From: Marispirochaeta sp.
GTDB lineage: Bacteria > Spirochaetota > Spirochaetia > JC444 > Marispirochaetaceae
DNA length: 64,000 bases
NCBI GenBank assembly: GCA_963676835.2
Contig: CAXXFF010000001.1
Location: 480,001 to 544,000 of the forward strand
Reading direction: 5' to 3'
The notes below the pieces were generated by a model. It was not told the DNA's origin and made no database searches. It saw only the letters and a program-made list of their open reading frames with translations. Position numbers and translations under genes: made by a program. Numbering within the stretch: the first letter of the stretch is position 1; every line of letters begins with the position of its first letter. Shown here one piece after another: positions 42,276-57,100 of the stretch.

Positions 42276-43658
42276 CTACTTCATGGTGCGGGCAGCCTCT
42301 TCCAGGGCGGCCACCAGCTCTTCGGTGGAGGGAATTATGGAAGGATATTTCATCTCTCCGTTGATATAGATACAGGGAAGACAGGGTATCTCCTGATACT
42401 GAATTCTGGCTATATCACCGGGGGTGTTGTACTGAAACACCTGCATCTCTATGGCGTCTTTAAGAATTTCCTCTGCAGATTCCGCTGAAGCAAGCATGTA
42501 GGTACAGGCAGCGCAGGCCTTGGGATCGAGGAGAAAAACCTCCATCAAGGGCTTTTCCAGGGAAGAATAGTCCGGCAGACGCACCTGTATATTTGCGAAA
42601 CTGCCTCCGGTGGAGTATTTCTTTACAATATCCCTGATTGCATTTCGTTCCTGTACCGCCTGGGCTACGCCTACTGCATTTTCAGGAGGTACATCGTAGG
42701 GCATGTCGCAACCCGGAGCTATAATCAGATTCTTTGTAAGAGAGAGTCCCGCACCTTCGATCCTGTCCATGAGATCAATGGTAAACTTCATGTTATCCAT
42801 CTGGTTTCCGAAGAGCATGACCGTTGTAAGGGGAATGTTTCCTCCAAGTACAATATTGTACTTGTCGGTAATGGTTTTTGCCTCGATCATGTTAACATTT
42901 TCATCCACCGCAATGGCATCAGGCGCGGTACGGCACATATTTTCTATGTTGAAGATGGCATTGCCGCAGACAAAGAGAGAACTGAAGGCCTTGCGGCTGC
43001 GGATATGATCAAAAAGCCGGGTGTAGGGTTCCAGAAAAAACTGCTCAAAATGCTTCGGAGAGATCTGTGACATAAGCGGATCAACAGGAACAATCACGTC
43101 CATGCCCTCATCGATATAGTAATCCGCCATGGCAATGGCAATATCCGTTGTGTAGGCAATAATCTTATGGATATATTCAGGCGCCTTGACCAGATTCATG
43201 AAAAGCTTCATCCCCCTCAGGTGAGAAGCTAGGGTCAGGGGACCGCAGAACAGACCATAGAGGGCGGTAGTCTCACCGACGGCCTCTTTAAACCGGCGCA
43301 TCACATCCCAGACCATGGGCAGACGGCCCTCATCCTTTCCAGGAATCTTTGTCGGAATCTCATCGGTTTTTTCTAATGGATGACTCACCACCGAGGGCAG
43401 ATTGTTCTCTATCCAGGCAAGTTCGCAACCGAGAATCTCTGCTTCAAGCTGCAGATCAAACATAACGGTCTGACCGTCGGGACTGTAAAGACGGTTAACC
43501 TCCATAAGGGATTCAAACAGTTTATCCGGATCCTGAAGCACCTCTATGGCGTTGTATCCTCTGGTTTTTCCCGCATGGATGCCCGCATAAGGAACCCATG
43601 GCGGACGTTCCACCTCTTCGTGACGGAGTACTTTATATATAAGCTCTTTACCGTTCAT
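42276..43658 (-). CDS. MtaA/UroD-family methylcobamide methyltransferase (MT2-like) fused to a C-terminal thioredoxin-like domain
   Basis: DLQLEAEILGC, GPLTLA, FVCGN, GNIP, APGCD; C-terminus CAACTYM...PCIYING; ATG 43658 with CAGGAG SD. Confidence 0.85.
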   Translation of the reverse strand: MNGKELIYKVLRHEEVERPPWVPYAGIHAGKTRGYNAIEVLQDPDKLFESLMEVNRLYSPDGQTVMFDLQLEAEILGCELAWIENNLPSVVSHPLEKTDEIPTKIPGKDEGRLPMVWDVMRRFKEAVGETTALYGLFCGPLTLASHLRGMKLFMNLVKAPEYIHKIIAYTTDIAIAMADYYIDEGMDVIVPVDPLMSQISPKHFEQFFLEPYTRLFDHIRSRKAFSSLFVCGNAIFNIENMCRTAPDAIAVDENVNMIEAKTITDKYNIVLGGNIPLTTVMLFGNQMDNMKFTIDLMDRIEGAGLSLTKNLIIAPGCDMPYDVPPENAVGVAQAVQERNAIRDIVKKYSTGGSFANIQVRLPDYSSLEKPLMEVFLLDPKACAACTYMLASAESAEEILKDAIEMQVFQYNTPGDIARIQYQEIPCLPCIYINGEMKYPSIIPSTEELVAALEEAARTMK

Positions 43659-43680
43659 AGCATAATCTCCTGCTCTGGTA

Positions 43681-44352
43681 TTAAAAATATTGCTCCATCC
43701 CCATAACTTCTCCGGGTGGCAGAATGATAATATCTTCCGACTCTTCAAAGAGAAGCATCCGCTCAAACAGACTTCCCCGGACAGAGCGCTCCTCAAATTC
43801 AAGGGCGAACTCATCTGCAAACCCTTGAGAAATCTCCCGGTACTTTTCCATTCCGTATGCCCCGGTATCAAGCAGCATGATCCTTCTGTAATGGGTAAGG
43901 ATCATCCCCATATACTCCCTGGCCTGCTCTTCGCCGTAGCGCTCTTTGTACGCCGGATATTCAAGGAGATGGCACTGCCCTTCTGCGGACTCAATAAAGC
44001 CTTTTGTCAGGTAGAGGGTTCCCTGTTCCTCTTCCGTGGCTTCACGGAACTGCCTGTGGGAACCGAAAAAAAGACCTATACAGTCATGCACCCGGGGAAA
44101 AACAAGCTCTTTGTCCGCAGAAGTGAGCCCGACAACACTGTTTGAACAGAGTCCGATACCGAAAATAATCCGTCTGATTTCCGCCGGGGCAGTGTCTATG
44201 GTTTCCTGCAGATAGCTGTTCATCTCTTCCTGACGGCTGTGTTTTTCAAAGGGAACAACATGAACCATCATCTCCGGTGGAATGAGTTTTCCGTATTCGT
44301 ACACTACAGTCTGGCAGATAACCACCATGGTATCGGCAGGGGGAGTATTCAT
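43681..44352 (-). CDS. DUF1638 family protein
   Basis: ICQTV, GLCSN, HDCI, LYLTKG, YGEEQA...HYRRIMLLDTG pattern typical of DUF1638. Confidence 0.75.
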   Translation of the reverse strand: MNTPPADTMVVICQTVVYEYGKLIPPEMMVHVVPFEKHSRQEEMNSYLQETIDTAPAEIRRIIFGIGLCSNSVVGLTSADKELVFPRVHDCIGLFFGSHRQFREATEEEQGTLYLTKGFIESAEGQCHLLEYPAYKERYGEEQAREYMGMILTHYRRIMLLDTGAYGMEKYREISQGFADEFALEFEERSVRGSLFERMLLFEESEDIIILPPGEVMGMEQYF

Positions 44353-44370
44353 ATCACCGTAAAATGTAAA

Positions 44371-44389
44371 CCGGCAGCACTGCTGCCGG
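44371..44389. other. GC-rich inverted repeat between the corrinoid and DUF1638 genes
   Basis: CCGGCAGCA-C-TGCTGCCGG. Confidence 0.4.
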
Positions 44390-44401
44390 CCATATTCTGC
44401 A

Positions 44402-45100
44402 TCAGGCGTTCAGGGCGCCGAGAATAATCGGCTCCTGACTGCCTCCGGCAGCCCCGCGTTCCATAAGCTGGTTGCAGAGATGCACACATTCACCGGCGGT
44501 ATTTGAGTACCCGTCGGCACTTATCATCTGCGTCCACTGGGGAGTAACCGGCCCTCCGCCGAGAATTACCGAATACTTATCCCGGATCCCCATAGCTTTA
44601 AGGGTCTCAATAAGCTCTTTCTGGTAGGGAAGAGAGGTGGTAATAAGGGTTGAGCAGGCAATTATATCCGCCTCTTCCCTCACTGCAGTATCAATAAACT
44701 GCTTTACTCCTACATCAATTCCCAGATCGACGACCTTGAAGCCGTTGGCGGAAAGCACCGCCTTGACCAGGTTCTTTCCGATATCATGGTGATCCCCGGC
44801 CATTACTCCCAGAATGATAGTCCCGGACTCGGCACCGTCGCCTCCGCGTTTGCGGATTTCCGCAAGAAGAATATTCATTGCCTCAGTGGCCGCCTCACCG
44901 CCGAGCATCAGCTCCGGAAGAAAGGCTTCTCCGTCCTCAAACTGCTGGCCCATAAGATCCATGGCAGTCTGAATCCCCTGTTTGATTACCGTCAGGGGCT
45001 CCAATCCGGCAGCCAGACTCTCTTCTGCAGCCTTTGCGGCATCTTCAGCCTCGCCTTCCATAACAGCGTTATACAGTTTCTTGATTATTTCATCTGACAT
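44402..45100 (-). CDS. Methyltransferase-cognate corrinoid protein (MtmC/MttC-like)
   Basis: Cap domain FLPELML; B12-binding DHHDIGKNLV (DxHxxG), DLGIDV, GGGPVT. Confidence 0.92.
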   Translation of the reverse strand: MSDEIIKKLYNAVMEGEAEDAAKAAEESLAAGLEPLTVIKQGIQTAMDLMGQQFEDGEAFLPELMLGGEAATEAMNILLAEIRKRGGDGAESGTIILGVMAGDHHDIGKNLVKAVLSANGFKVVDLGIDVGVKQFIDTAVREEADIIACSTLITTSLPYQKELIETLKAMGIRDKYSVILGGGPVTPQWTQMISADGYSNTAGECVHLCNQLMERGAAGGSQEPIILGALNA

Positions 45101-45156
45101 ATCGTCTCTCCTGATTACGTTCTCTTTTCAAATCAGCTCAAATCGGCACTCAAAAT

Positions 45157-46536
45157 TTAAGCCAGGGGAAATCCGCTTTTAACGGCCTCTTCCCGTACCT
45201 GGTCATATACCTTCTCCGCCTCCGGCAGGGGCCGGAAATTCTTCAGATCCCAGACCTCTTCCACGGGCTTTCCAATATCCGGCGTTTTGATCTGATCCTC
45301 GTATTTGGGGGCGAAGGTTTTCGCAAGCTCGTTCACAGATTCCAGGGACATTCCCGATGCAGCATGGGCAACTTCAGCACACCAGCGGCACTCAAGGGGA
45401 GAAAGATAGTCATTGAACTTTCCTCCCGCTGCCCGGGGACCGGTACTGAAAGCGGCACCTGACGCGGCAATAATGGAAACTCCAACCAGGGTTTCGTACA
45501 TAAGGCCCGGTGTTCCCGGTCCGCTTACCTGGTTTGCAATACCGTGGGAGCAGATATGGGTGTTTCTGCTCAGGGCCTGGTGGGTAACACTGAGAGCCCA
45601 GAGTCCATCCCGGTTTACATTGGAGAGATAGCGGATATCGTAGAGTTCTCCACCGCCGACGGTGGAAAAGAGCACTGCATACTGAAGAAGACCTGCAGCG
45701 ATACTTGAGATGATAGCCCCTTCAGGGGTTCCCGGCATTCCACCGATCATTCCCGGAGAACCGGCAAATATCATTCCATCGACTTCAAGGGAATGGACTA
45801 CCTTGTGAAGAGTCTGATTATTGATCTTCAGCTCAGAAGGATAGAGAATCAGCGAGAGATCGGTATTATAGAAACCATCCTTTGCGCCATAGCAGAACTG
45901 ACCGTATTCGGTAACCGCGGAAATATTACCGATTCCCGGCATACCTTCCCGTCCGGCCTTTTTGCGGATAACCCGGTGCATCTTGGCCTGCTCATAGGTT
46001 AGCAGGGTTTCCGAAGGATCATTGGGAAGGGCTTCAAGTCCGTTGATGGTACACATGGATCCGCCTTCCAGAAGGTCAACCTCAAGCTGACGGGCAATAC
46101 CTTCAGTAAGCAGAGGCCATTTATCTTCCGAGATAGTTATACCCAGAGAAGCTCCGAAAAGCATGGGTCTGGGATCCTCGGGAACCCGGCTTTTCATAAC
46201 CCGCTTGTCCGGTCCGAAACCGAGGGTTACTTCCGAAGGGGCCAGATGAAGGGCGCTTTTAAGTTCGTCTTCACTGATGCGTATTATTCTCTCCCGGGCT
46301 TCGTTATACATACCCAGTTCCAGGGCCAGCTCAAATCCAGCCTGGAAAAACCTGTCTGCCAGCTCCATGTTGGTGTTTACAGGATTCTCCCGGTCTACAC
46401 TCTTCTGAAGCTCATACTTCTGCAGCATTTTCTTTACCGCCTGGGGGATCTTTTTCAGGTCCCAGTCCCTGGCACTGCAGTACTCTCCCTCACGGGAACG
46501 GCGTAAAATCTCTATCAAATCCGGTTTCTGTTTCAC
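45157..46536 (-). CDS. MtmB-family (monomethylamine methyltransferase-like) protein without pyrrolysine
   Basis: Full-length similarity to recalled MtmB motifs (GE.C...DWDL.KIP, FQAGFE, AGR.GM, ELKI, GP.T, ASG, E.R...EVA); no in-frame TAG; GTG start with AAGGAG SD. Confidence 0.88.
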   Translation of the reverse strand: MKQKPDLIEILRRSREGEYCSARDWDLKKIPQAVKKMLQKYELQKSVDRENPVNTNMELADRFFQAGFELALELGMYNEARERIIRISEDELKSALHLAPSEVTLGFGPDKRVMKSRVPEDPRPMLFGASLGITISEDKWPLLTEGIARQLEVDLLEGGSMCTINGLEALPNDPSETLLTYEQAKMHRVIRKKAGREGMPGIGNISAVTEYGQFCYGAKDGFYNTDLSLILYPSELKINNQTLHKVVHSLEVDGMIFAGSPGMIGGMPGTPEGAIISSIAAGLLQYAVLFSTVGGGELYDIRYLSNVNRDGLWALSVTHQALSRNTHICSHGIANQVSGPGTPGLMYETLVGVSIIAASGAAFSTGPRAAGGKFNDYLSPLECRWCAEVAHAASGMSLESVNELAKTFAPKYEDQIKTPDIGKPVEEVWDLKNFRPLPEAEKVYDQVREEAVKSGFPLA

Positions 46537-46638
46537 AGTCTACTCCTTATAAAACGTGATCATACAGACCTGTCACTGTCTGGTTGAATTAGTGTTTTAG
46601 AAAGAAGGCAGTTATACTAAGTTCGTGAAATCGCCATT

Positions 46639-46688
46639 CAAGCAGCTTGGTTTTAGACTTGCACCAGTTGCAAGGTTTCATTTGCCTG
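46639..46688 (-). promoter_or_regulatory. Conserved leader element copy A (candidate cis-regulatory RNA)
   Basis: CAGGCA-AATGAAAC-CTTGC-AACTGGT-GCAAG-TCTAAAACCAAGC-TGCTTG; near-copy at 53642-53690. Confidence 0.55.
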
Positions 46689-46806
46689 TGATTAAAATGC
46701 TTTCACTATAACCACAATCTTTTTTTCCGGCCCTTACCTGAAAGTATGGTACAGAAGGTACGGAACATTCCAATCTCTTTTACTGCTTTCCTCCTCCCGT
46801 TCTCCC

Positions 46807-48690
46807 TTATATCCCCCGGGGAATATCAAAATACATATGCGCCATCAGCCTCCGGCTGAAACCTTTATCAAAGGAAAGTTCCAGATAATCCAGACTCTCC
46901 CTCAGCTTTCCTGTACGGCGGCGAAAATCCCCGGACAGGGTATAATAGACCGCACCCCGCTGGGAGGTGTTCCCGGAAGGAATCACCCGGCCCTTAAGCT
47001 CTGCAGGCAGAAGCCCGATCTGAAATGCGCTCTCAGGATCAAGGGCACTGCCGAAACCGCCTGCAAGATAGACCATCTCAACATCTGTTACCGCCATGTT
47101 CCGGCAATTGAGCAGGGTCTCTATTCCGGCAGCAACCGCACCCTTGGCCAGTTGAACCTCCCTGAGATCCTTCTGGGAAAAATAAACCGGCGAACCATGG
47201 GCCGATTCCGATGCAGGTGAAAGGAGAAATACCTCCTCACCGTCTATAGTTGTCCGGCGGGATTTCAGCTCATCTCCGGTAGATGACGAAAGCTTATCCA
47301 CTGCCAGAAAACGGCCTTTGCCGTCAACCAGGCCTTCCCGTACAAGAAGGGCGGCTATGTCGACGATACCGCTGCCGCAGATACCGGAAGGAGCTCCTCC
47401 TCCAATGCAGCCAGTTTTCAGACGGCCTGTATCCGCTTCAAAAACAACACTGTAAACCGCACCGGCTATACTGCCGGTCCCGCAGGCAATATGAGCCCCT
47501 TCAAAGGCCGGACCCGCCGCGGTGGCACAGGAAACAAGCGCATCCCTGCTGCCCAGAACAATTTCTCCATTGGTGCCGATATCCACAAAAAGAGCGGTCT
47601 CTTCCTGCATATCCATACCAACCGCGGCAATCCCGACGGTAATATCCGCACCGATGTAGGCGGAACGTCCCGGAACAAGCCTGGTAACCATTTTACCGAA
47701 AGGGCTGCTGCCCAGGGGACCGGTTCCTTCTGCAAAATGCAGTGCCTCGGTAAAAACCGGCACATAGGGCGTCTGGGCTATCCCCAGGGGATACACTCCG
47801 GCAAAAAGGTGCAGCATACTGGTGTTGCCTGCCAGAACACAGGAATTCACCTTTTCCGGTCTGATTCCATTTTTTATGCAGAGATCTTCCATCATCTCCC
47901 CAATCTGAAGAGTGATGGAATCCTGCAGCTCCTTAAGCCCTTCCACTGAATCTGCAGCATGGGAAATCCGGGTAATTACGTCGGCACCGTAGATTCCCTG
48001 CCGGTTCAGACCCGCCCGCCGGTCAATCTCCTTACCGCTGCTGGCATCAACCAGACTGACAACAACCGATGTAGTTCCTATATCTACTGCAAAGGACCAG
48101 AGGGCTGCGGAGGTATCCCCGGATTCAATATCCAAAACCCTGTTTCCGTCCAGAATCAAAGTAACCCTTCTCTCCCGCAGCTGCACAAGCCGGGAAAGAC
48201 TATCTGCAGCTGAGCCGGAAAAAACCATATCCTCTATCCCTGAAACCTTCCGTACCTGGTCAAAAAGGTTCAGCTGGCTCTTCCCGTCCCTCTCCTCAAG
48301 GAGAATCATCTGCTTGCGGACAAGAGGGCTAACTACCCCCCCGAAAGCCACAGGGGAGACCAGCACTGCTGCCTCTCCGGAACTCTGCAGCTCAACCGTA
48401 AGATCCCCGGATGGAAACAGGCGGCATGCCAGCCGCATCCCGCTTTTAAGCTCCTGTTCCGAAAGAGACTGCTTTTCTTCCGGACCGGGTTCACGACAGT
48501 CACCGGATAAAATCCGAACACGGCATTTTCCACAGGTTCCCTTCCCGCCGCAGGGAGCGGCCATTTCCCGGCCGGAGCGGCTTTTTCTCAAAACCTCGAG
48601 CAGACTCGGTCCGGGTGGAAAATCAACAAACTCGTTACCGGGAATAATTTCAAGTCTGAACTCCCCGGAATTCACCTCTCCTGCAGCCAC
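46807..48690 (-). CDS. ASKHA-domain corrinoid reductive activator (RACo/DUF4445 type) with N-terminal 2Fe-2S domain
   Basis: CGGKGTCGKC...RLAC, DIGTTS, GADVITRI, DIGTNGE, AAGPAFEG, GICGSG, LAGGFG. Confidence 0.92.
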   Translation of the reverse strand: MAAGEVNSGEFRLEIIPGNEFVDFPPGPSLLEVLRKSRSGREMAAPCGGKGTCGKCRVRILSGDCREPGPEEKQSLSEQELKSGMRLACRLFPSGDLTVELQSSGEAAVLVSPVAFGGVVSPLVRKQMILLEERDGKSQLNLFDQVRKVSGIEDMVFSGSAADSLSRLVQLRERRVTLILDGNRVLDIESGDTSAALWSFAVDIGTTSVVVSLVDASSGKEIDRRAGLNRQGIYGADVITRISHAADSVEGLKELQDSITLQIGEMMEDLCIKNGIRPEKVNSCVLAGNTSMLHLFAGVYPLGIAQTPYVPVFTEALHFAEGTGPLGSSPFGKMVTRLVPGRSAYIGADITVGIAAVGMDMQEETALFVDIGTNGEIVLGSRDALVSCATAAGPAFEGAHIACGTGSIAGAVYSVVFEADTGRLKTGCIGGGAPSGICGSGIVDIAALLVREGLVDGKGRFLAVDKLSSSTGDELKSRRTTIDGEEVFLLSPASESAHGSPVYFSQKDLREVQLAKGAVAAGIETLLNCRNMAVTDVEMVYLAGGFGSALDPESAFQIGLLPAELKGRVIPSGNTSQRGAVYYTLSGDFRRRTGKLRESLDYLELSFDKGFSRRLMAHMYFDIPRGI

Positions 48691-48710
48691 TTCGACGAAT
48701 GCCCCGGTAA

Positions 48711-49652
48711 CTACCGTTCTTCCCTGAAGTAGGAGACACCCAGTGCCTGGGGAGCTTTGCTCACGCTGCTGCGGCGCACTGCATCCATAATCAGAATCAG
48801 AATGGTCATGCCGTAGGGAAGAACATCCAGCACATACTGGGATACGGGCAGATCAAATTTCTGCAGCCGGAAACCGATTATATCCAGACCGCCGAAAAAG
48901 AGAGCGCCTAAAAGAAGGCGGTAGGGATTCCATTTTGAAAAGATAACCAGCGCAACAGCGATCCACCCCCTGCCGGCAACAAGTGAATCCTGCCAGGCCG
49001 GAACATATACGAGAGAAAGGTAGCCTCCGGCAAAACCGCACAGGCCGCCGCCAACCAGGAGGTGAACATACTTGTAGAGCCCCACGGGAATACCCAGAGC
49101 GTCCGCAGCAGCGGGATTTTCCCCCACGATGCGGAGATTGAGTCCTGTCCTGGTGGTGTACAGATAGAGGCCGGATACAAGAACCAGCAGAAAGCTTATA
49201 TAGATGAGGATATCGTGGTTGAAGAAAATCTCCCCCAGATAGGGAATATCACCAAGTACCGGAAGCTTCAGGGGCCGGAAAACCTGCATAATACCATCCG
49301 GGGCCTTCTGGCCCACCATGGAAGCTCCTGCAAATCCTGCAAAACCTGTTCCGAACAAAGTAAGGGTCAGACCGGTTACAATCTGGTTGGCCCTCATACT
49401 GATGGTAAGAAAACCGAAAATTAGTGCACCGGTCATTCCCGCAAGTACAGAACCGGCAACAGCCATAAGAGCCGAGCCGGACTGAAGACCGAAGTAGAAG
49501 CCCATGACAGCGCCCATATACATCATGCCTTCAACCCCCAGGTTGAGACTGCCACTCTCTTCGCTGATCAGCTCACCGAGGCCGGCTATCAGAAGAGGAG
49601 TTGCAGACACCACCGCGGCGGCCAGAAAGTTTACTACCCAGGCACTATCCAT
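48711..49652 (-). CDS. Nucleoside-type (CUT2) ABC transporter permease
   Basis: GELISEESGSLNLGVEGMM, GENPAAA, GRGWIAVA. Confidence 0.9.
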   Translation of the reverse strand: MDSAWVVNFLAAAVVSATPLLIAGLGELISEESGSLNLGVEGMMYMGAVMGFYFGLQSGSALMAVAGSVLAGMTGALIFGFLTISMRANQIVTGLTLTLFGTGFAGFAGASMVGQKAPDGIMQVFRPLKLPVLGDIPYLGEIFFNHDILIYISFLLVLVSGLYLYTTRTGLNLRIVGENPAAADALGIPVGLYKYVHLLVGGGLCGFAGGYLSLVYVPAWQDSLVAGRGWIAVALVIFSKWNPYRLLLGALFFGGLDIIGFRLQKFDLPVSQYVLDVLPYGMTILILIMDAVRRSSVSKAPQALGVSYFREER

Positions 49653-50773
49653 TACCTTTCTCCTTCCTCCGGGGTTCCCTCATCTTCAGTCTCTGTTACC
49701 GGTGAAACAGCAGCATGCCTGCCGGAGGAGAAACTGAAGTGAACCTTGTAGCGGATAAAAAACTCGCTGCCCAGAACAAAGAACAGAATAAGCCCCTGGA
49801 GCAGATCTGCAGCTGCCTGGGGAATATGATACACAGTCTGAATAAAGGAACCGCCTTCCACCATGACAGCGAAAAAGAACGAGGCAATCAGAATAGTCAC
49901 CGCGTTCAGCTGGGCGAGCCAGGCGATTATTATGGCGGTATACCCCACCCCGTTGCTGACATCCACACTCAGGGTACTGTTAACTCCGGAAACCTGGATC
50001 ATGCCCACAAGACCGCAGATACCGCCGCTGGCAAACAGGGTTGCTCCGATAATCAGGGGAACGTTCATGCCGGCATAGCGGGCAGTCTCTTCACTTTCAC
50101 CAATAACCCGAATCTCATAGCCTTTTTTAGTGTAGCGTATAAACAGAAAGAGCCCTGCCACCAGCACCGGCAACAACAGCAATCCGATATGCACCCCGAA
50201 AAGATCGGGTAGCTGGCCGTTTTCCGCCAGATTAGGGATTTTCGGATAGCCGTATGCCTCTTTATCCCGCCAGGCGACATACTGAAGCCAGGTTATCCAC
50301 TTAAGGGCAACATAATTCAGCATCAGTGTAAGGATTGTTTCGTTGGCTTTAAAGCGTATTTTAAATACCGCGGGAAAGAGCGCCCAGATGCCGCCGGAAA
50401 ACACCGCCACAAGGGCCATGAACAGCAGAAGCAGCGGCCTCGGCATCTCTGGAAATGTGAGGGCCGCCCAGGTTGCCGCAAAGGCTCCCATCATAATCTG
50501 CCCTTCGCCGCCGATATTCCAGAACTTCATTCTGAAAGCAAGGCTTATCCCCAAAGAGGCGATGGCCAGGGGAATGGTACGCACCAGGGTTTCCCGGAAG
50601 CGGTAGCCGCTTCCAAGGCCTCCGTCCAGCATGGATCGGTACACAGAAAAGGGGTTGTACCCCATTAACGCAAGAAGGATTCCCGCCGCTGCCAGGGCGG
50701 CCAATACCGCCAGCAACCGAATCCTGAGGCGGGACTTGAGTGGTGTCTCTGCAATCTGGGTTAATCGGAACAC
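49652..50773 (-). CDS. Nucleoside-type (CUT2) ABC transporter permease
   Basis: WNIGGEGQ, NETILTLMLNY, ARYAG, GYTAIIIAWL; GTG 50773 behind GGGGAG (track start 50887 is likely too long). Confidence 0.9.
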   Translation of the reverse strand: MFRLTQIAETPLKSRLRIRLLAVLAALAAAGILLALMGYNPFSVYRSMLDGGLGSGYRFRETLVRTIPLAIASLGISLAFRMKFWNIGGEGQIMMGAFAATWAALTFPEMPRPLLLLFMALVAVFSGGIWALFPAVFKIRFKANETILTLMLNYVALKWITWLQYVAWRDKEAYGYPKIPNLAENGQLPDLFGVHIGLLLLPVLVAGLFLFIRYTKKGYEIRVIGESEETARYAGMNVPLIIGATLFASGGICGLVGMIQVSGVNSTLSVDVSNGVGYTAIIIAWLAQLNAVTILIASFFFAVMVEGGSFIQTVYHIPQAAADLLQGLILFFVLGSEFFIRYKVHFSFSSGRHAAVSPVTETEDEGTPEEGER

Positions 50774-52284
50774 GATTTGTACTCCCCTAATTGTGACATA
50801 AGCAGTCCAAGTTCCTCTTTCCCCGTTTCGGCGGCAGAAAGAATACCCGATACCTCGCCGCAGTACAGCACCATTATTCTGTCGCACACTTCAAGGAGCA
50901 GATCGAGATCTTCAGCCACAAGCAGCACACCAGCACCGGCGGCTTTCTGCTCATTCAGCATATCGATAACCGTATGGGTTACCCCGAGGTCCAGACCGCG
51001 CACCGGATAGGCTGCAATAAGAACATCCGGCCGGGTATCGATTTCCCGGCCCAGCAGCACTTTCTGCATATTACCCCCGGATAAAACCCGGATAGGCCGG
51101 TTAATCCCGGGGTGCATTATACTCAGGGAGTCTGTCAGTTCCTCCGATTTTTTCTTTCCGAAGGCACGGTCAAAGAGCATCCCCTTCCGGCTTCTGTACT
51201 GGCGGAGCATGATATTGTCCACCAGGTCCATGCCGGTGGCGAGCCCCATACCCGTCCGGTCTTCCGGAATGTATGCCATGCTGATTTCGGGATCGGTTAG
51301 AATCTGCCGGGTTGATTTACTGCTTATATCAGTACCGCAGACAGAGATACGTCCTGCCTGAATCTTCTGCAGACCCAGAAGTGCATGGCAGAGCTGTTTC
51401 TGGCCGCTGCCGGAGACACCGGCTACACCGAGAATTTCTGAACCATGCAGGGTAAAGCTTATATTCTTAAGCTCCCTTGACGCCTCTTTATCTTCGATAC
51501 TGAGGTTTTCCACCTCAAGAACTACCCGCCCCGGGGCGGTTTCCACCCGGGGGTACTCCATATTCATGGATTTACCCACCATAAGCTCTGCCAGAAGCTT
51601 CTGACTCACCTCGGAGGTATTAACCGTTTTTACCAGCCGTCCTTTTCTAAGCACGCTGACCCGGTCGCTTATTTCCATAACCTCGTTGAGCTTATGGGTA
51701 ATGATGATGGTTGTCTTTCCCTGCATTTTCATTTTACGGATAATGCAGAAAAGAACCTCTGTCTCCTGAGGGGTAAGCACCGTGGTGGGCTCATCGAGAA
51801 TCAGAATATCCGCCCCCCGGTAGAGAACCTTCAGAATTTCTACTGTCTGCTTTTCCCCGACACCCATGTCTCGGATTTTTCTGTCCAGATCTACACAAAG
51901 ACCGGTATCATCGGAAAGACTTTGTATTCTCTCCTTTATTGCCCGGGGTTTGAGGAACAGGGAGCCCTTTGTTCCGGCGCAGATATTTTCCCAGGAGCTT
52001 AAGGCATCTATTAGTTTGAAATGCTGATAGATCATACCGATACCGGCGGCAATTGAATCCTGGGGAGACCGGAACCTCTGTTCCTTTCCCCGGAGATGTA
52101 TACTCCCCGAATCGGGAGCATAGATACCGGTAAGGATATTCATGAGGGTACTTTTACCTGCACCGTTTTCACCCAGCACGGCATGAACCTCACCTTCCCG
52201 GACAGATAGATCTATTCTGTCATTGGCTTTGAGACTGCCGAATTCCTTGGTAATTGATTCCATGCGGATAAATTCACCGGACAC
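50761..52284 (-). CDS. CUT2-family ABC ATPase with two NBDs (NupA/YufO-like)
   Basis: GENGAGKSTLM, QHFKL, LDEPT, LSGGNMQK, PVRGLD. Confidence 0.93.
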   Translation of the reverse strand: MSGEFIRMESITKEFGSLKANDRIDLSVREGEVHAVLGENGAGKSTLMNILTGIYAPDSGSIHLRGKEQRFRSPQDSIAAGIGMIYQHFKLIDALSSWENICAGTKGSLFLKPRAIKERIQSLSDDTGLCVDLDRKIRDMGVGEKQTVEILKVLYRGADILILDEPTTVLTPQETEVLFCIIRKMKMQGKTTIIITHKLNEVMEISDRVSVLRKGRLVKTVNTSEVSQKLLAELMVGKSMNMEYPRVETAPGRVVLEVENLSIEDKEASRELKNISFTLHGSEILGVAGVSGSGQKQLCHALLGLQKIQAGRISVCGTDISSKSTRQILTDPEISMAYIPEDRTGMGLATGMDLVDNIMLRQYRSRKGMLFDRAFGKKKSEELTDSLSIMHPGINRPIRVLSGGNMQKVLLGREIDTRPDVLIAAYPVRGLDLGVTHTVIDMLNEQKAAGAGVLLVAEDLDLLLEVCDRIMVLYCGEVSGILSAAETGKEELGLLMSQLGEYKSCSD

Positions 52285-52327
52285 CGTAACTGTTCCCCTC
52301 TTTTTCCTTTATTTCAGAACATCGTAC

Positions 52328-52370
52328 AAAAAGAAAGTCTGCAGAACCCCCGGATATACAGGGGCTCCGC
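52328..52370 (-). terminator. Hairpin/attenuator after the BMP gene
   Basis: Minus strand GCGGAGCCCC...GGGGTTCTGC then AGACTTTCTTTTT. Confidence 0.55.
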
Positions 52371-52380
52371 ATTCTATGCA

Positions 52381-53457
52381 TTATTCTGCAATCTTACCGA
52401 TTACACCTTCAACAAGCCAGTTCATGCCGAGAAGTGCACCATCATCGGGTGTTGTACCTGCGGGTACAACGGTTTCACCCTCATTATTTTTAAGAGGACC
52501 CGCAAAGACCACAAGAGAACCGTCGGCGATTTTCTTCTGGGCTGCTGCAACAGCTTCCGCTGCTCCGGCAGGAGCATTCTTGCCCATTTCAGCTACACGG
52601 ACAATATCCTCGTCCATGCCGCCCCAGTAGTTCACCGCTTCCCAGGTTCCATTCATAACTTCCTGAACAGCCTGAATATAGTAGGGCTCCCAGTTCCAGT
52701 AGGCAGAGGTCAGACAGGCATCGGGTGCTGCATCATTCATGTCTGCATGGTAGCCGATACCCCATACTCCCCGGGCTTCTGCAGCCTGAAGGTTGGCAGG
52801 TCCGGTCTGGTGCTGGGCAATGATATCGCATCCATTGTCAATAAGAGCATTGGCAGCTTCCTTCTCTTTAGGAGGATCATTCCAGTTGTGAGTCCAGATA
52901 ACTTCTACTGTGGCATCGGGATTAACACTGCGCACACCGAGGGTAAAGGCATTGATTCCCCGTACAACCTCGGGAATCTCAAAAGCGGCAAGGTAGCCGA
53001 TCTTATTGCTTTCAGTCTTCATCCCGGCGACAATACCGGACAGGTAACGGGCCTGATACATACGTCCAAGATAGTTGATCGCATTGTCCGCCTGCTTGTA
53101 TCCGCCGCAGTGGAAGAATTTGACATCCGGATTATCCGCGGCAACTTCCAGCATATAGTCCATATAGCCGAAACTTGTTGCAAAGATCATCTTCGCGCCC
53201 TGGGAAATCATGTCACGCATAACCTTTGCAGACTCCTGAGTATTGGGAACACTCTCTTTATAGAGTGTTTTTACTCCAAGCTCTTTCTCAATAGCCAGAC
53301 GACCTCTGTCATGCTGCTGTGTCCAGCCGCCGTCACTTATCGGACCGGTAAAGACAAACCCTACAGTGAACTGCTCTTCCTGCTCACTCTGACCGCCGGC
53401 ATAAGCGAAAGCTGTCAGAAGAGCCAGGCCCAAAAGAAGGACCAGTAATTTTTTCAT
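52381..53457 (-). CDS. BMP-family ABC substrate-binding protein (purine/nucleoside-binding type)
   Basis: GPISDGGWTQQHDRGR, ATSFGY, RYLSGIVAG, PEVVRGINAF, DIIAQH. Confidence 0.92.
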   Translation of the reverse strand: MKKLLVLLLGLALLTAFAYAGGQSEQEEQFTVGFVFTGPISDGGWTQQHDRGRLAIEKELGVKTLYKESVPNTQESAKVMRDMISQGAKMIFATSFGYMDYMLEVAADNPDVKFFHCGGYKQADNAINYLGRMYQARYLSGIVAGMKTESNKIGYLAAFEIPEVVRGINAFTLGVRSVNPDATVEVIWTHNWNDPPKEKEAANALIDNGCDIIAQHQTGPANLQAAEARGVWGIGYHADMNDAAPDACLTSAYWNWEPYYIQAVQEVMNGTWEAVNYWGGMDEDIVRVAEMGKNAPAGAAEAVAAAQKKIADGSLVVFAGPLKNNEGETVVPAGTTPDDGALLGMNWLVEGVIGKIAE

Positions 53458-53641
53458 ACCTAACTCCTAAGAATAGTATTTATGGAAACTCTGCCGCACT
53501 GCAGAATTTTCATCCCTGACTGAGGAGAATCGAAGTTAAGAGTGAGTATAACAGGTAGACTATCAATCTCTTCACATCCGTTCCCTGATGGAAACTGATA
53601 CAAATAGATTCAATTTTTATGCACACACACTGCAGCGTGAG

Positions 53642-53690
53642 CAAGCACGGTCTGTTTTAAACTTGCGATTGCAAGGTATCTTGTTACCTG
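53642..53690 (-). promoter_or_regulatory. Conserved leader element copy B (candidate cis-regulatory RNA)
   Basis: CAGGTA-ACAAGATAC-CTTGC-AATC-GCAAG-TTTAAAACAGACCG-TGCTTG; TGGTACATT extended -10 lies 18 nt upstream. Confidence 0.55.
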
Positions 53691-54138
53691 CCGGATACAT
53701 AAAGAACCAATGTACCAGTAGATTATTTTGAAGAAGTATTTCCAACACCATGCAATCCCTGAAGGATCTATGGTATTTTTCCGTGAATACAACTCTTCGC
53801 AAATAAGTTGCAAAATATGAACCAACTTCAGCCAGGCTGCTGTACCATTCCGGTTCCTACACTAATAATACCATACTATTTAATTGATATACAAACAGTT
53901 ATTACACAGGTAAAACCAATAAATTTTTATCTTAAATATTTTTCCCCGGCCACAACCTGACAGAGACAGCAAAAAAACATACAACAATGTACCCAATCGC
54001 CATAAGGTTTTACAATTTTGTAGATAATTTTACAAAATGATGTAATCAGGCAAGCTGCATATTTCTCCGGTGTAAAAGGGCAAAAGACTATTGCGGGGCC
54101 TGGCAGTCCAACCATGAAAAGCCCTTACTCTGCCTCTC

Positions 54139-57100
54139 CTACTTTGACTGCAGATAGCCGTTCAGAAGATCCAGCGCCTTTTCATACTCAATATCTTCAA
54201 TCTCTTTCTGTATTTCCAGAAAAACCTCTGCATCAGCTGTCCCCTTCATACGCAGTACAAGCTCTTCAACCACATCTCCCGCCCGGGAATCATCCCCCAG
54301 TAAGAGCGCCTTAAGGTCACCTGCAAGATCTGAAATATCCTCTGGAGAGGTTTCAGCCGCTGTATCAGGGGGACTCTCTTCAACAAGATGGTTGTTTATC
54401 TCAGTTACTATGGTATCGAGGATATTCCCAATCTCGTTCAGCAATGCCGCTGTTTGATCCTGTTCGTCACCCTTAAGCAGACTTTCCAACCCCCGGGCCT
54501 TTTCCTGGAGTTCCGAAGCGCCTACGGTACCGGCTATCCCTTTCAGAGTATGGGCAATCCTGACAGCCTCTTCCATCGACCCGGAGTTTATGGCTTCCTG
54601 TATTCTTACGTGTGCTCCCCCCTGATTGGATGCAAACTGCCGCAGCAGCTTTTTATACCTGCCGATATTCCCTCCGGTTCTCTCGATTCCAGAAGAAACG
54701 TTTATTCCCGGAAGAACCGGAATGGAACCATCGGGACTATCAGCGGCTCCATTCCGGCCGGACAGGGAGGCTATATACTCCCCGGGCAGCACTCTTTTCC
54801 CCGGGGTAATCCATTTATACAGCACCGAATAGAGAGCCTCAGGATCAACCGGCTTTGTTACATAATCGTTCATGCCGATCTTCAGCACCTTTTCGGAAAC
54901 ACCACTCATGGCATCAGCAGTCATGGCTATTATGGGAAGATCAGCAAAACGTACATCTTCACGGATCAGTTCGGTTGCAGTATAGCCGTCCATAACCGGC
55001 ATCTGCAGGTCCATAAGCACAAGATCAAAGGATTCACCCTCTGCGGAAGCAAGGACCGCATCAACCGCCTCTTTTCCATCCCTGGCAAGGGATACAACAA
55101 AGCCTTCTCCTTCGAGCAGTTCCGTAGCCACCTGCTGATTAAACTCATTATCTTCAACCAGGAGCAGCCGGGAACCTCTGACCTCATCGAAATTATCCGG
55201 AATAACAATATCAGCTCCCCTTCGGGGGGTCCTTACCGCAACATCGAAGCCGAAAACATCCATAATAGTATTAAAAAGCACCGACGGACTTACCGGTTTT
55301 ACCAGAAACGCATCGATACCAATATCCTCAGCCAGCATCATATACTCTTCCCTGCCATAGCCCGTTACCAGGATCACTTTTGTATATTTTCCCAGTTCAG
55401 GATTGGATTTGATAATTCCCGCGGCCTCAATACCATCCATATCGGGCATACGGAGATCCATCAGCACCAGGGGTATGCGCTTTTCGCCGGCAGAGTCTTC
55501 AAGAATCTCCAGAGCATCCACCGCTGATGTGGCGGTGGTAACCTCAAAACCGAATTCTTTGATAATATTGCGCATGGTACCAAGAGAGTTTTCATCATCA
55601 TCTACAATTAAGACCCTGAGACCTTTCAGATCCAGTCCGGGAGTCGCATACTTTTTATCCTTCCCGGCCTGTTCACTCTGGAGCCTGAATGGAAGTTTTA
55701 CCCAGAATGTACTGCCTTCTCCCGGAGCCGAAATAACACCGATCTCACCCCCCATTAACTCCGACAATTTCTTGCTTATGGCAAGTCCGAGACCGGTCCC
55801 TCCGTATTTTCGGGTTGTGGAGGTATCTGCCTGGGTAAAGGACTGAAAGAGCTTATCCTGCTGCTCCGGAGTCATACCAATACCGGTATCCCGTACACTG
55901 AAGCGGACCAGTACAGATTCTTCGTCTCTTTCAAGAATCTCAGCAGACACCAGAATATCGCCCTCTTTGGTAAACTTAACGGCATTACTACTCAGGTTCA
56001 GAAGGATCTGCCCGAGACGCAGAGGATCACCGATTAAGTAGGCAGGAAAATCCGGGGCAAGATCGAATTTCAGTTCAAGGCCCTTTTCATTGCATTTTAC
56101 CCCGATCATGCCAGCCAGGTTGTCCAGAACATCATCAAAGACAAAAGGCACCGTCTCTATTTCCAGTTTTCCCGCTTCAATCTTACTGAAATCAAGAATA
56201 TCGTTGATGATATTCAGCAATGATTTTGAAGACTGATCTATTTTATTCAGGTAGTCCCGCTGGCGGTGGGTAAGCTCGGTTTTCAGAGCAAGGTGGCTCA
56301 TTCCGATAATCGCATTCATGGGAGTCCGGATTTCGTGACTCATGTTGGCCAGAAAGTCACTTTTTATCCGGTTGGCAGCCTCTGCAGCCTCCTTGGCTTC
56401 CCACAGGGCGGTTTCTCCTTTTTTACGCTCCGTAATATCCTGCAGCCAGCCTAGAACCCCCTCTTCTCCCTCGTAGGTAATGGGAAGAAAGGTAATCAGG
56501 TAGTCCCGGATATCCCGGTTTATGTCTATCAGTTTTATTTCGTGGTTATCCAGCACTCCCGTCTCATGCATCTTCTCAATTACTTCCTGCCTGTCCTCAG
56601 GGTTCTGATATATTTTTATAGCAGGGTCTCCAATATCCAGGCCGAACATTTCGACGAATCTATGGTTGGTAAAGCGGAAAATCCCGTTAAAGGTAAATGC
56701 AACCCCCACAGGAGCATTATTCAGAATAAACTCCAGCTGGTCCCGGGCCCTTTTTATCTCGTTTTCCGCCCGCTTGCTTTCAGTAATATCTTCCAGTGTG
56801 CTGATTACATCATAGGGATAGCCACCTGAATGCACCGGGTTGAACAGTATTCTTAAAAATGCCTTTTTACCTCCGGTAACTGAAATGTACTCACCCTCAA
56901 ATTTGGAATTCTTCCCCGTAAGTGCCGTTGTTAAGGTCTGACGCATCTCCGGATCAACTATCTGCCTGGGAGCATTAAAGCCGAGCAGCTTCTCCATTGG
57001 TGCTCCCAGGTAATCTGCAGCAATGGAGTTACAATTAATAATGGTGCCTTCACTGTTGAAGTGAATAATGCCTATGGGAGAGTTTTCAACAATAATACGC

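Follow-up and report, generated by a model that had tools for sequence, protein, structure and literature searches.

Three-component corrinoid-dependent methyl transfer, in which a first methyltransferase (MT1), a corrinoid protein and a second methyltransferase (MT2) act together with a RACo-type activator, is a known kind of system. The pyrrolysine-free MttB systems MtgB, MtpB, MtcB and MtyB use it for glycine betaine, proline betaine, carnitine and gamma-butyrobetaine. The N-methyl groups of purines are removed in caffeine-degrading Pseudomonas by NdmABCDE, whose Rieske N-demethylases are O2-dependent monooxygenases that release formaldehyde, and to our knowledge all known purine demethylases require oxygen. 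Within the MtmB family, the available text on MtqB of Methanococcoides methylutens Q3c describes a pyrrolysine-free homologue that carries out tetramethylammonium and choline:coenzyme M (CoM) methyl transfer; it is given there as the sole pyrrolysine-free MtmB with a demonstrated function, the remaining members being called function-unknown by the authors (PMC13044021). A pyrrolysine-free member of the MtmB superfamily, likewise of unknown function, is reported in the accessible part of another study as the most induced protein of strain DCMF on dichloromethane (PMC9768040). The subject here is an operon of Marispirochaeta sp. (contig CAXXFF010000001.1), contained in a stretch of 64,000 nucleotides (positions 480,001 to 544,000; the window), in which a pyrrolysine-free MtmB homologue is encoded together with a purine-type importer. 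It probably serves to import an N-methylated purine-type base and to demethylate it in a corrinoid-dependent reaction.

The operon consists of nine minus-strand genes, all in the same direction (42276-53457 of the window; open reading frame (ORF) list and Pfam). The original prediction had named nine co-oriented genes, and all were present at their positions and matched by Pfam to their families, with scores well over the curated cut-offs (Table 1). The complete methyl-transfer module that it had recognized was also recovered, as MT1, corrinoid protein, MT2 and activator candidates were all found. The apparently new elements are the class of substrate, a leader RNA and the coupling of the module both with a purine importer and with the 2,8-dioxopurine pathway. 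Import and corrinoid-dependent demethylation of a methylated nucleoside or purine, as first predicted, is supported by comparative genomics, but a base is the likelier substrate than a nucleoside. This support comes from the linkage to BMP-family importers, which is kept across phyla, from neighbouring genes for xanthine dehydrogenase (XDH)-family enzymes, amidohydrolases and PucR regulators, and from the binding protein, which is nearest to solved purine-base binders.

In the proposed mechanism, the periplasmic BMP protein would capture an N-methylated purine-type base (a methylguanine, methyladenine, methylxanthine or methylurate), which would be imported by the ATP-binding cassette (ABC) transporter. 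The MtmB homologue would move the methyl group to the Co(I) form of the corrinoid protein, and in this presumed direction of flow the MtaA-like URO-D/thioredoxin-like (Trx-like) protein would pass it on to an acceptor, while RACo with ATP would restore Co(I) after oxidation. The demethylated purine would enter the reductive urate/2,8-dioxopurine pathway, which is encoded elsewhere in the host genome. The two copies of the leader RNA would probably switch on both halves of the operon upon one common signal.

The presumed MT1 matches Pfam family PF05369 over residues 7-453 (222.8 bits against a cut-off of 25) and aligns over residues 6-451 with MtmB of Methanosarcina barkeri (1l2q; E = 7.6e-45); none of the NCBIfam models matched it at E 1e-5. 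That it would be free of pyrrolysine had been anticipated correctly. The gene is a single open frame of 459 amino acids (aa) without the in-frame stop (amber) codon that marks MtmB proper, and Ile202, which sits opposite the pyrrolysine of 1l2q, is unchanged across 18 aligned homologues. It is the single MtmB homologue in the host genome (4.43 Mb, 97% complete) and belongs to a large family, annotated as monomethylamine methyltransferase in metagenome-assembled genomes (MAGs) of Spirochaetia, Anaerolineales, Acidimicrobiia and others. The homologue listings, including a search from an archaeal homologue, held no named match from Methanococcoides or Methanosarcina, most of their entries being nameless.

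A contig scan of public genomes with the 18-sequence MtmB alignment returned 67 related loci, which span Spirochaetota, Chloroflexota, Verrucomicrobiota/Kiritimatiellae, Acidimicrobiia, Bacillota and archaea. One of them (L001) is from a Marispirochaeta MAG and is 97% identical. All ORFs of the 67 loci were clustered and representatives of the recurrent clusters were annotated. By cluster count, the corrinoid protein is present in 49 loci and RACo in 23. The BMP/ABC set is found in 32 of the 67 loci and, when only the 37 loci with a length of 15 kb or more are counted, in 27, and so the co-occurrence that had been proposed as a check holds, with the linkage kept across phyla. Corresponding counts (all loci, then those of at least 15 kb) are 30 and 22 for XDH-family subunits, 23 and 20 for one amidohydrolase cluster, 15 and 14 for URO-D proteins, 13 and 9 for pterin-binding methyltransferases, and 5 and 5 for PucR regulators. 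At least one of four markers (BMP/ABC, XDH, amidohydrolase, PucR) lies within 10 kb in 36 of the 37 longer loci. Since matches to BMP, XDH or amidohydrolase occupy five regions of the host genome outside the operon, the base rate of a marker in random 21-kb windows can be roughly estimated, with no formal control, at ∼3%.

The gene order varies between lineages. Five spirochaete loci (L002-L005 and L011) have the order BMP, ATPase, two permeases, RACo, MtmB, corrinoid protein, DUF1638, YgfM-like FAD subunit, XdhD-like enzyme and URO-D, the contig of L011 ending before URO-D; the window and L001 are without the two XDH genes that are found elsewhere between DUF1638 and URO-D. L010 runs from GntR through a pterin methyltransferase, MtmB, corrinoid protein, RACo, BMP, ATPase, permease and an unassigned ORF to an amidohydrolase, an FAD subunit and an FeS subunit. 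The loci of Verrucomicrobiota and Kiritimatiellae (L007-L009) begin with a divergent amidohydrolase, followed by corrinoid protein, MtmB and the BMP/ABC set, with RACo also present in L007 and L009. Up to four MtmB paralogues occur in Anaerolineales (L012-L015 and L017), among two XDH sets and three amidohydrolases. These Anaerolineales islands also carry two corrinoid proteins, a YdcZ-type exporter and a divergent URO-D-like gene. Two archaeal MAGs of Thermoproteota type (L058, L062) have pyrrolysine-free MtmB homologues between corrinoid protein and MtaB genes, with a convergent BMP/ABC set. In three Clostridia and Desulfocucumis loci (L048:8209-9208, L047 and L049), the corrinoid protein-MtmB pair is immediately preceded by a gene for a CobW-related GTPase and a small ORF.

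To place the importer, the BMP protein was searched against all PDB sequences. Its nearest solved relatives are a Brucella melitensis protein (3s99, E = 6e-86) and AtzT (6pi5, E = 5e-83); matches to the nucleoside binders TmpC/PnrA (2fqw, 5e-11) and BmpD (6shu, 1e-5) are far weaker. The accessible text on AtzT gives Kd values of 110 nM for guanine, 2.5 uM for adenine, 2.2 uM for hydroxyatrazine and 0.36 uM for ammeline, a site that comprises Tyr45 and Trp194 as the stacking pair, Ser97, the backbone of Phe98, Glu165, Asn218 and Asn220, and adenine modelled in the site of 3s99 (PMC6834077). The window protein keeps the Ser-Phe pair and the Glu, and its stacking pair is Trp/Trp as in 3s99. Asn218 of AtzT is replaced by His, which is also the residue in 3s99, and Asn220 by Thr (Asp in 3s99). 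The resulting His-Gln-Thr signature is present in seven of eight spirochaete-type operon BMPs, with Ser replacing Thr in the eighth. The other close BMP paralogue of the host genome (42.5% identity in the aligned region) has Thr-Glu-Asp at the signature. The importer had been taken as nucleoside-type. It is indeed a BMP/ABC importer, but its nearest PDB relatives place it in the purine-base rather than the nucleoside subfamily, and it is predicted to have an altered polar pocket.

This placement in the purine-base subfamily makes a methylated base likelier than a nucleoside, and the change of two polar contacts indicates that the ligand would not simply be guanine or adenine. A methylated nucleoside from RNA turnover (m6A, m1A, m7G or m1G) as the substrate, instead of a free base, is very improbable. 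Nucleoside binders (PnrA/TmpC and BmpD) do belong to the BMP family, and N7- or N1-methylated nucleosides are cationic and would, by chemical reasoning, be good methyl donors. However, the E-values of the window BMP are at least 70 orders of magnitude worse against nucleoside binders than against base binders, and the annotated recurrent neighbour clusters (singleton genes left out) include no nucleoside phosphorylase or hydrolase.

Several of the enzymes encoded beside the MtmB homologues are of purine-specific types. The operon-internal molybdenum (Mo) enzyme of L002 (957 aa) is of the XdhD/YgfN type, scoring 1324.7 bits with TIGR03313 against a cut-off of 1101.9 (NCBIfam). Twelve neighbouring amidohydrolases were compared with NCBIfam models: six exceed the 8-oxoguanine deaminase cut-off (569-689 bits against 532), two fall just under it, one is above the SsnA cut-off, and the remaining three come nearest to 5'-deoxyadenosine deaminase or TRZ/ATZ hydrolases but stay under the respective cut-offs. 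The best models for the other neighbouring Mo subunits are pucD or XdhA, also under the cut-offs. A complete-looking reductive urate/2,8-dioxopurine set is present in the host genome on a different contig from the operon (C2:1503000-1523000, L075). It comprises YgfK, SsnA, YgeY, two PALP enzymes, a three-subunit XDH, an 8-oxoguanine-deaminase-type protein, a YgfM-like protein and an XdhD-type enzyme; YgfK, SsnA, YgeY, the deaminase-type protein and XdhD are all above NCBIfam cut-offs. The host XdhD is 57.5% identical to the operon-internal XdhD of L002, and the host deaminase 64% identical to that of L010. By its sequences, this island corresponds to the published pathway, in which, according to the accessible text of two preprints, XdhD reduces urate to 2,8-dioxopurine and an anaerobic breakdown of the ring follows through YgfK, SsnA, YgeY, YgeX and others (bioRxiv 10.1101/2025.05.19.654654, 10.1101/2025.04.24.650524).

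The same neighbours bear on a related explanation, in which the system is as described and the methyl donor is another planar N-heterocycle, such as N-methylnicotinate (trigonelline), homarine, a methylated pterin or lumazine, or an N-alkylated s-triazine, whose ring the XDH and amidohydrolase neighbours would process. Nicotinate dehydrogenase and enamidase belong to the XDH-family and amidohydrolase superfamilies, and most non-spirochaete Mo subunits are under the pucD/XdhA cut-offs. The amidohydrolases of L007, L061 and L012:7612 score below the cut-offs of their own best models (TRZ/ATZ or 5'-deoxyadenosine deaminase). The polar site residues of the BMP are unlike those of guanine and adenine binders, and AtzT, its second-best solved relative, binds hydroxyatrazine and ammeline at the affinities given above (PMC6834077, accessible part). 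Against this, the markers above curated cut-offs are purine-specific (XdhD-type, 8-oxoguanine deaminase and SsnA), PucR regulators occur in five loci, and the best solved BMP relatives carry adenine or guanine. Such a heterocycle is regarded as an unlikely donor.

Several points weigh against a methylated purine as the substrate, an assignment that is a hypothesis drawn from comparative genomics. XDH-family enzymes and the amidohydrolase group found here also act on nicotinate, pterins and triazines. The window operon itself is without an XDH or deaminase gene, and 18 of the 67 loci are without any of the four markers, all of them shorter than 15 kb except L064 (15.5 kb). In addition to the two changed AtzT contacts in the window BMP (Asn218 to His, Asn220 to Thr), the BMPs of L007-L009 are only ∼25% identical to it and differ in the polar site residues, yet their MtmBs are 69-70% identical to that of the window. 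MT2 is without the His of the His-Cys-Cys site, which leaves the second half-reaction ambiguous. CdhC was not found in the host genome, where full-length MetH was the only match to a pterin-binding methyltransferase query, and the folding energies of the leaders are ordinary (z of −2.8 to +0.7).

The MtmB fold suits very small substrates in Methanosarcina, and MtqB, the sole characterized pyrrolysine-free MtmB, uses tetramethylammonium and choline (PMC13044021, available text). Both would fit a demethylation of a small methylamine or quaternary amine, as by MtqB, with the BMP and purine genes adjoining for an unrelated reason such as nitrogen scavenging under a shared control. This is nevertheless improbable, given that the transporter gene lies in the same operon, adjoining mtmB or RACo, in several phyla and in varied gene orders, that one leader motif heads the transporter and methyltransferase genes alike, and that no BCCT or ProX/OpuA-type carrier is among the annotated recurrent neighbour families. 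The words "purine" and "transporter" are absent from the MtqB paper in its available text (PMC13044021). Demethylation of an imported purine-type base is the preferred reading.

The components that would handle the methyl group after MT1 differ in how closely they follow known proteins. The corrinoid protein contains B12-binding and B12-binding_2 domains (Pfam, 83.5 and 59.5 bits) and a DxHxxG motif. The activator has Fer2, Raco_middle and RACo_C_ter domains (38.3, 152.9 and 233.4 bits), as expected of a RACo/RamA-like protein. DUF1638 is confined to spirochaete-type loci, where one ORF cluster accounts for seven members (six related loci and the window).

For the last gene, a fusion of an MtaA-type URO-D protein with a thioredoxin domain had been predicted; the URO-D family was confirmed, but the protein is non-canonical as an MtaA and the thioredoxin match is weak. 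Its best solved relative is MtaA (4ay7, E = 5e-20), and it scores 131 with the NCBIfam MtaA/CmuA model against a cut-off of 235. When it is aligned with 4ay7, Phe stands in place of the zinc-site His (HxC motif) of MtaA, and both Cys are kept. The last ∼80 residues match Thioredoxin_3 weakly (E = 0.0017, 18.8 bits against a gathering threshold of 24.8, profile positions 2-75 of 76) and contain CAAC. Among look-alike clusters of the ESM Atlas (∼446-481 aa), PF13192 is assigned to 33-58% of the members. Thirteen URO-D neighbours were aligned: Phe-Cys-Cys and the CAAC tail occur together in nine of nine full-length fusion proteins, while the short, tail-less URO-D of L006 has His-Cys-Cys intact. 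The His-Cys-Cys zinc sphere marks the S-methyltransferases of the UroD superfamily (MtaA, MtbA, MtsA and Mlp; bioRxiv 10.1101/2023.07.31.551370). Because the window protein has Phe-Cys-Cys in its place, it was not classed as an MtaA-type thiol methylase and that label was not adopted. It may work like MtaA, and, speculatively, the CAAC cysteines could complete the site or join in the transfer.

The URO-D/Trx-like fusion forms a distinct family, with members in the window, L002-L005, L039, L061 and the host genome (C3, L073:5740-7086). The host member, 56% identical to the window protein, belongs to a second corrinoid set without a recognizable MT1 (C3:797000-812000, L073), which also contains RACo, a PocR/AraC regulator, a corrinoid protein and CobW.

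The acceptor seems to differ between lineages, since in many others MT2 is a pterin-binding protein with MTHFR adjoining. In the host, a tetrahydrofolate or Wood-Ljungdahl fate of the methyl group was considered and dropped: the lack of CdhC and MetH as the only pterin-binding match indicate that this genome is not set up for Wood-Ljungdahl oxidation or assimilation of methyl-tetrahydrofolate. A protein of 226-266 aa (cluster 11; L017:16451-17155 and 11 other loci) lies beside the pterin-binding MT2 in most cases. Its sole match is weak, to the MetH activation domain (E = 0.007), and it may be a reactivation factor replacing RACo.

A common leader before bmp and the mtmB-like gene, which had been noticed in the original prediction, proved to be real: its core pattern has just two sites in the 4.43-Mb host genome, both at the operon. 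The motif emerged from local comparison of the two leaders (a 40-nucleotide (nt) similarity) and was missed by global alignment. In total, 20 instances were found in 13 loci, all on the coding strand and before bmp, mtmB or the corrinoid protein-mtmB pair. Two sites each are at equivalent positions in L001-L005 and one is in L011, where the bmp side is cut off. A metagenome scan with a single protein as query gave two loci, L089 with two motif sites, again at the equivalent positions, and L088 with one. The Anaerolineales loci L012, L014, L015 and L017 have a variant 5' of the corrinoid protein-MtmB pair, whose stem is CTTAAG/CTTAAG and into which a long hairpin is inserted.

Covariation supports an RNA hairpin of six pairs, in which 96.9% of cells of the 17-sequence alignment are paired. 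Three of the six pairs change on both sides (GC to AU; CG to UA, AU or UG), the observed covariation score was reached by 0 of 500 shuffles, and sliding the partner columns drops pairing to 6%-46%. The length of the hairpin loop varies from 4 to ∼25 nt, which favours an RNA stem and disfavours a protein operator, whose half-sites would keep a constant distance. In the same alignment, the 3' flank GUYUAAAAC is nearly invariant. RNAalifold returned the inner hairpin only. Most sequences allow an outer helix (P1), in differing registers, and in the bmp-copy leader a two-hairpin alternative is equally stable and is the minimum-energy fold; P1 is plausible but for these reasons is not claimed. One and the same CAAG can pair either with the 5' strand of the hairpin or with a CUUG repeat further downstream. 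Inspection by eye suggests in each leader an additional hairpin, variable in sequence, 30-50 nt ahead of the ribosome-binding site.

The motif is restricted to this type of operon in all genomes searched. Covariance models found it only at the same two operon positions in the host genome and in the genome holding L001, and nowhere beyond the operon type in four other motif-carrying genomes. Model R1 gave no accepted match in 150 further Spirochaetota genomes; two weak matches (E = 0.002 and 0.004), which lie over ORFs and are without the core sequence, were rejected. Among 151 genomes of the order of genome G157, model R2 recovered only two already-known genomes and had no match in the other 149. 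The motif was not detected in the verrucomicrobial loci. Rfam 15 had no match at E up to 1 in positions 36000-61000 of the window, and seven motif-holding loci gave none there at E up to 5. In lineages that lack the motif, genes for protein regulators accompany the operon, GntR/UTRA in L010, L033 and L037 and PucR in five Bacillota loci. A conserved, covarying hairpin that is confined to this operon type and has no Rfam match makes the leader a candidate riboswitch, which would act as a dedicated cis-regulatory RNA.

The positions of all features are collected in Table 1. The listed ORF of permease 1 overlaps the ATPase gene and so the true start probably lies downstream of it. The listed URO-D ORF (42276-43871, TTG at 43871) overlaps the DUF1638 gene; its start is likely the ATG at 43658, which has GGAG upstream and gives a protein of 460 aa. 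The hairpins after bmp and after the corrinoid protein gene are strong and GC-rich and are possible internal attenuators or mRNA stabilizers. Judged from them and from the second leader between RACo and mtmB, the operon would be divided into two regulated parts, one running from bmp to RACo and the other from mtmB to URO-D, each attenuated behind its first gene or gene pair. The operon is flanked downstream by HtrA and UvrB genes and upstream by a gene for a 1911-aa hybrid histidine kinase (54139-59874, minus strand) with dCache, HAMP, several PAS, HisKA, HATPase, two receiver domains and Hpt. The kinase was considered as a part of the system and dropped, as L002-L005 do not have it next to the operon.

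Table 1. Features of the Marispirochaeta operon, in order of transcription (positions in the window)
Feature	Positions	Strand	Remarks
Leader RNA motif, copy 1	53629..53701	-	5' of bmp; core ACCTTGC-loop-GCAAGTTTAAAAC; 60.7 bits
BMP-family substrate-binding protein, purine-base subfamily (predicted)	52381..53457	-	358 aa; Pfam Bmp 214.7 bits
13-bp hairpin	52340..52371	-	directly 3' of bmp stop codon
ABC ATPase, two ABC_tran domains	50761..52284	-	507 aa; Pfam
Permease 1 (BPD_transp_2)	49652..50887	-	ORF as listed
Permease 2 (BPD_transp_2)	48711..49652	-	313 aa; Pfam
RACo-type reductive activator of corrinoid proteins	46807..48690	-	627 aa; Fer2, Raco_middle, RACo_C_ter
Leader RNA motif, copy 2	46625..46700	-	5' of mtmB-like gene; 69.5 bits
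Pyrrolysine-free MtmB homologue, presumed MT1	45157..46536	-	459 aa; GTG start; AAGGAG upstream
Corrinoid protein	44402..45100	-	232 aa; DHHDIG at residue 103
10-bp hairpin	44369..44391	-	3' of corrinoid protein gene
DUF1638 protein	43681..44352	-	223 aa; Pfam 131.1 bits
MtaA-like URO-D methyltransferase with Trx-like tail, presumed MT2	42276..43658	-	460 aa from likely ATG; URO-D 173.9 bits

That members of the MtmB family have purine-degrading genes as neighbours in five or more bacterial phyla points to an undescribed, O2-free removal of methyl groups from purine-like compounds. Methylated purines are supplied by RNA and DNA turnover, by marine invertebrate metabolites, and by caffeine and theobromine in waste water. 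The absence of any described O2-independent route, on which the original prediction had remarked, agrees with the literature searches made here, limited in coverage (MtmB or corrinoid with XDH, methylated purines, caffeine and acetogens), in which no description of a corrinoid-dependent purine demethylase was found. If the proposal is correct, a large family that now carries the annotation monomethylamine methyltransferase in MAGs of several phyla would gain a function, methyl-group metabolism would be connected with the recently described anaerobic purine pathway, and a further riboswitch class might be added. The operon would also offer a candidate enzyme for the transfer of 13C from caffeine N-methyl groups to methane in anoxic marine sediment, where Anaerolineae and Verrucomicrobiota are among the enriched bacteria and no enzyme is identified in the accessible text (bioRxiv 10.64898/2026.01.06.697959).

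A broader generalization can be offered tentatively. The pyrrolysine-free MtmBs of bacteria and some archaea might form a family of methylpurine:corrinoid methyltransferases, in which arrays of paralogues would strip successive N-methyl groups (from methylxanthines, methylurates, methylguanines and caffeine-type compounds) and pass the stripped ring on to the 2,8-dioxopurine pathway, with the leader as a new riboswitch class that senses a methylated purine. On this view, the route would be the first oxygen-independent one for purine N-demethylation.

Comparison with known systems shows where the Marispirochaeta operon departs from each. The binding protein shares about half of its residues with AtzT and 3s99 over the full length and keeps the aromatic sandwich and the Ser-Phe and Glu contacts, whereas Asn218 and Asn220 of AtzT are exchanged for His and Thr. 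The reductive urate/2,8-dioxopurine pathway is related through the XdhD- and YgfM-type genes inside the operon of L002-L005 and L011; it has no methyltransferase step, and the window operon would feed it from upstream. NdmABCDE has in common the removal of purine N-methyl groups by separate enzymes for each ring position, which recalls the Anaerolineales paralogue arrays, but it is O2-dependent, releases formaldehyde, has no homology to the window system and uses no corrinoid. MtaA (4ay7) and Mlp of type 1 mlp clusters share the URO-D fold, the company of a corrinoid protein and a RACo-type activator, and the lack of a tetrahydrofolate methyltransferase nearby (bioRxiv 10.1101/2023.07.31.551370), while the window protein has Phe for the zinc-site His and an extra C-terminal Trx-like domain with CAAC.

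Analogous to the pyrrolysine-free MttB systems, a methyltransferase of a pyrrolysine family, itself without pyrrolysine, would have been recruited to a new N-methyl substrate in anaerobes; those systems differ in belonging to the MttB superfamily, in their aliphatic quaternary amine substrates, in the pterin-binding MT2 and in tetrahydrofolate as the acceptor. The MtqB/MtqC/MtqA system, set beside the window protein by description only and described with conserved Met, Cys and aromatic residues in the MtqB site (PMC13044021), likewise pairs a pyrrolysine-free MtmB member with its cognate corrinoid protein and follows the same order from MT1 through the corrinoid protein to MT2, but it is archaeal and methanogenic, with a quaternary-amine substrate and CoM as the acceptor. 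Finally, MtmB1/MtmC/RamA of Methanosarcina barkeri (1l2q, 1nth) belongs with the window MtmB homologue to one Pfam family over the full length. In contrast to it, the window system has Ile for pyrrolysine 202, a bacterial RACo-type activator, and a bacterial importer in a context of purine genes.

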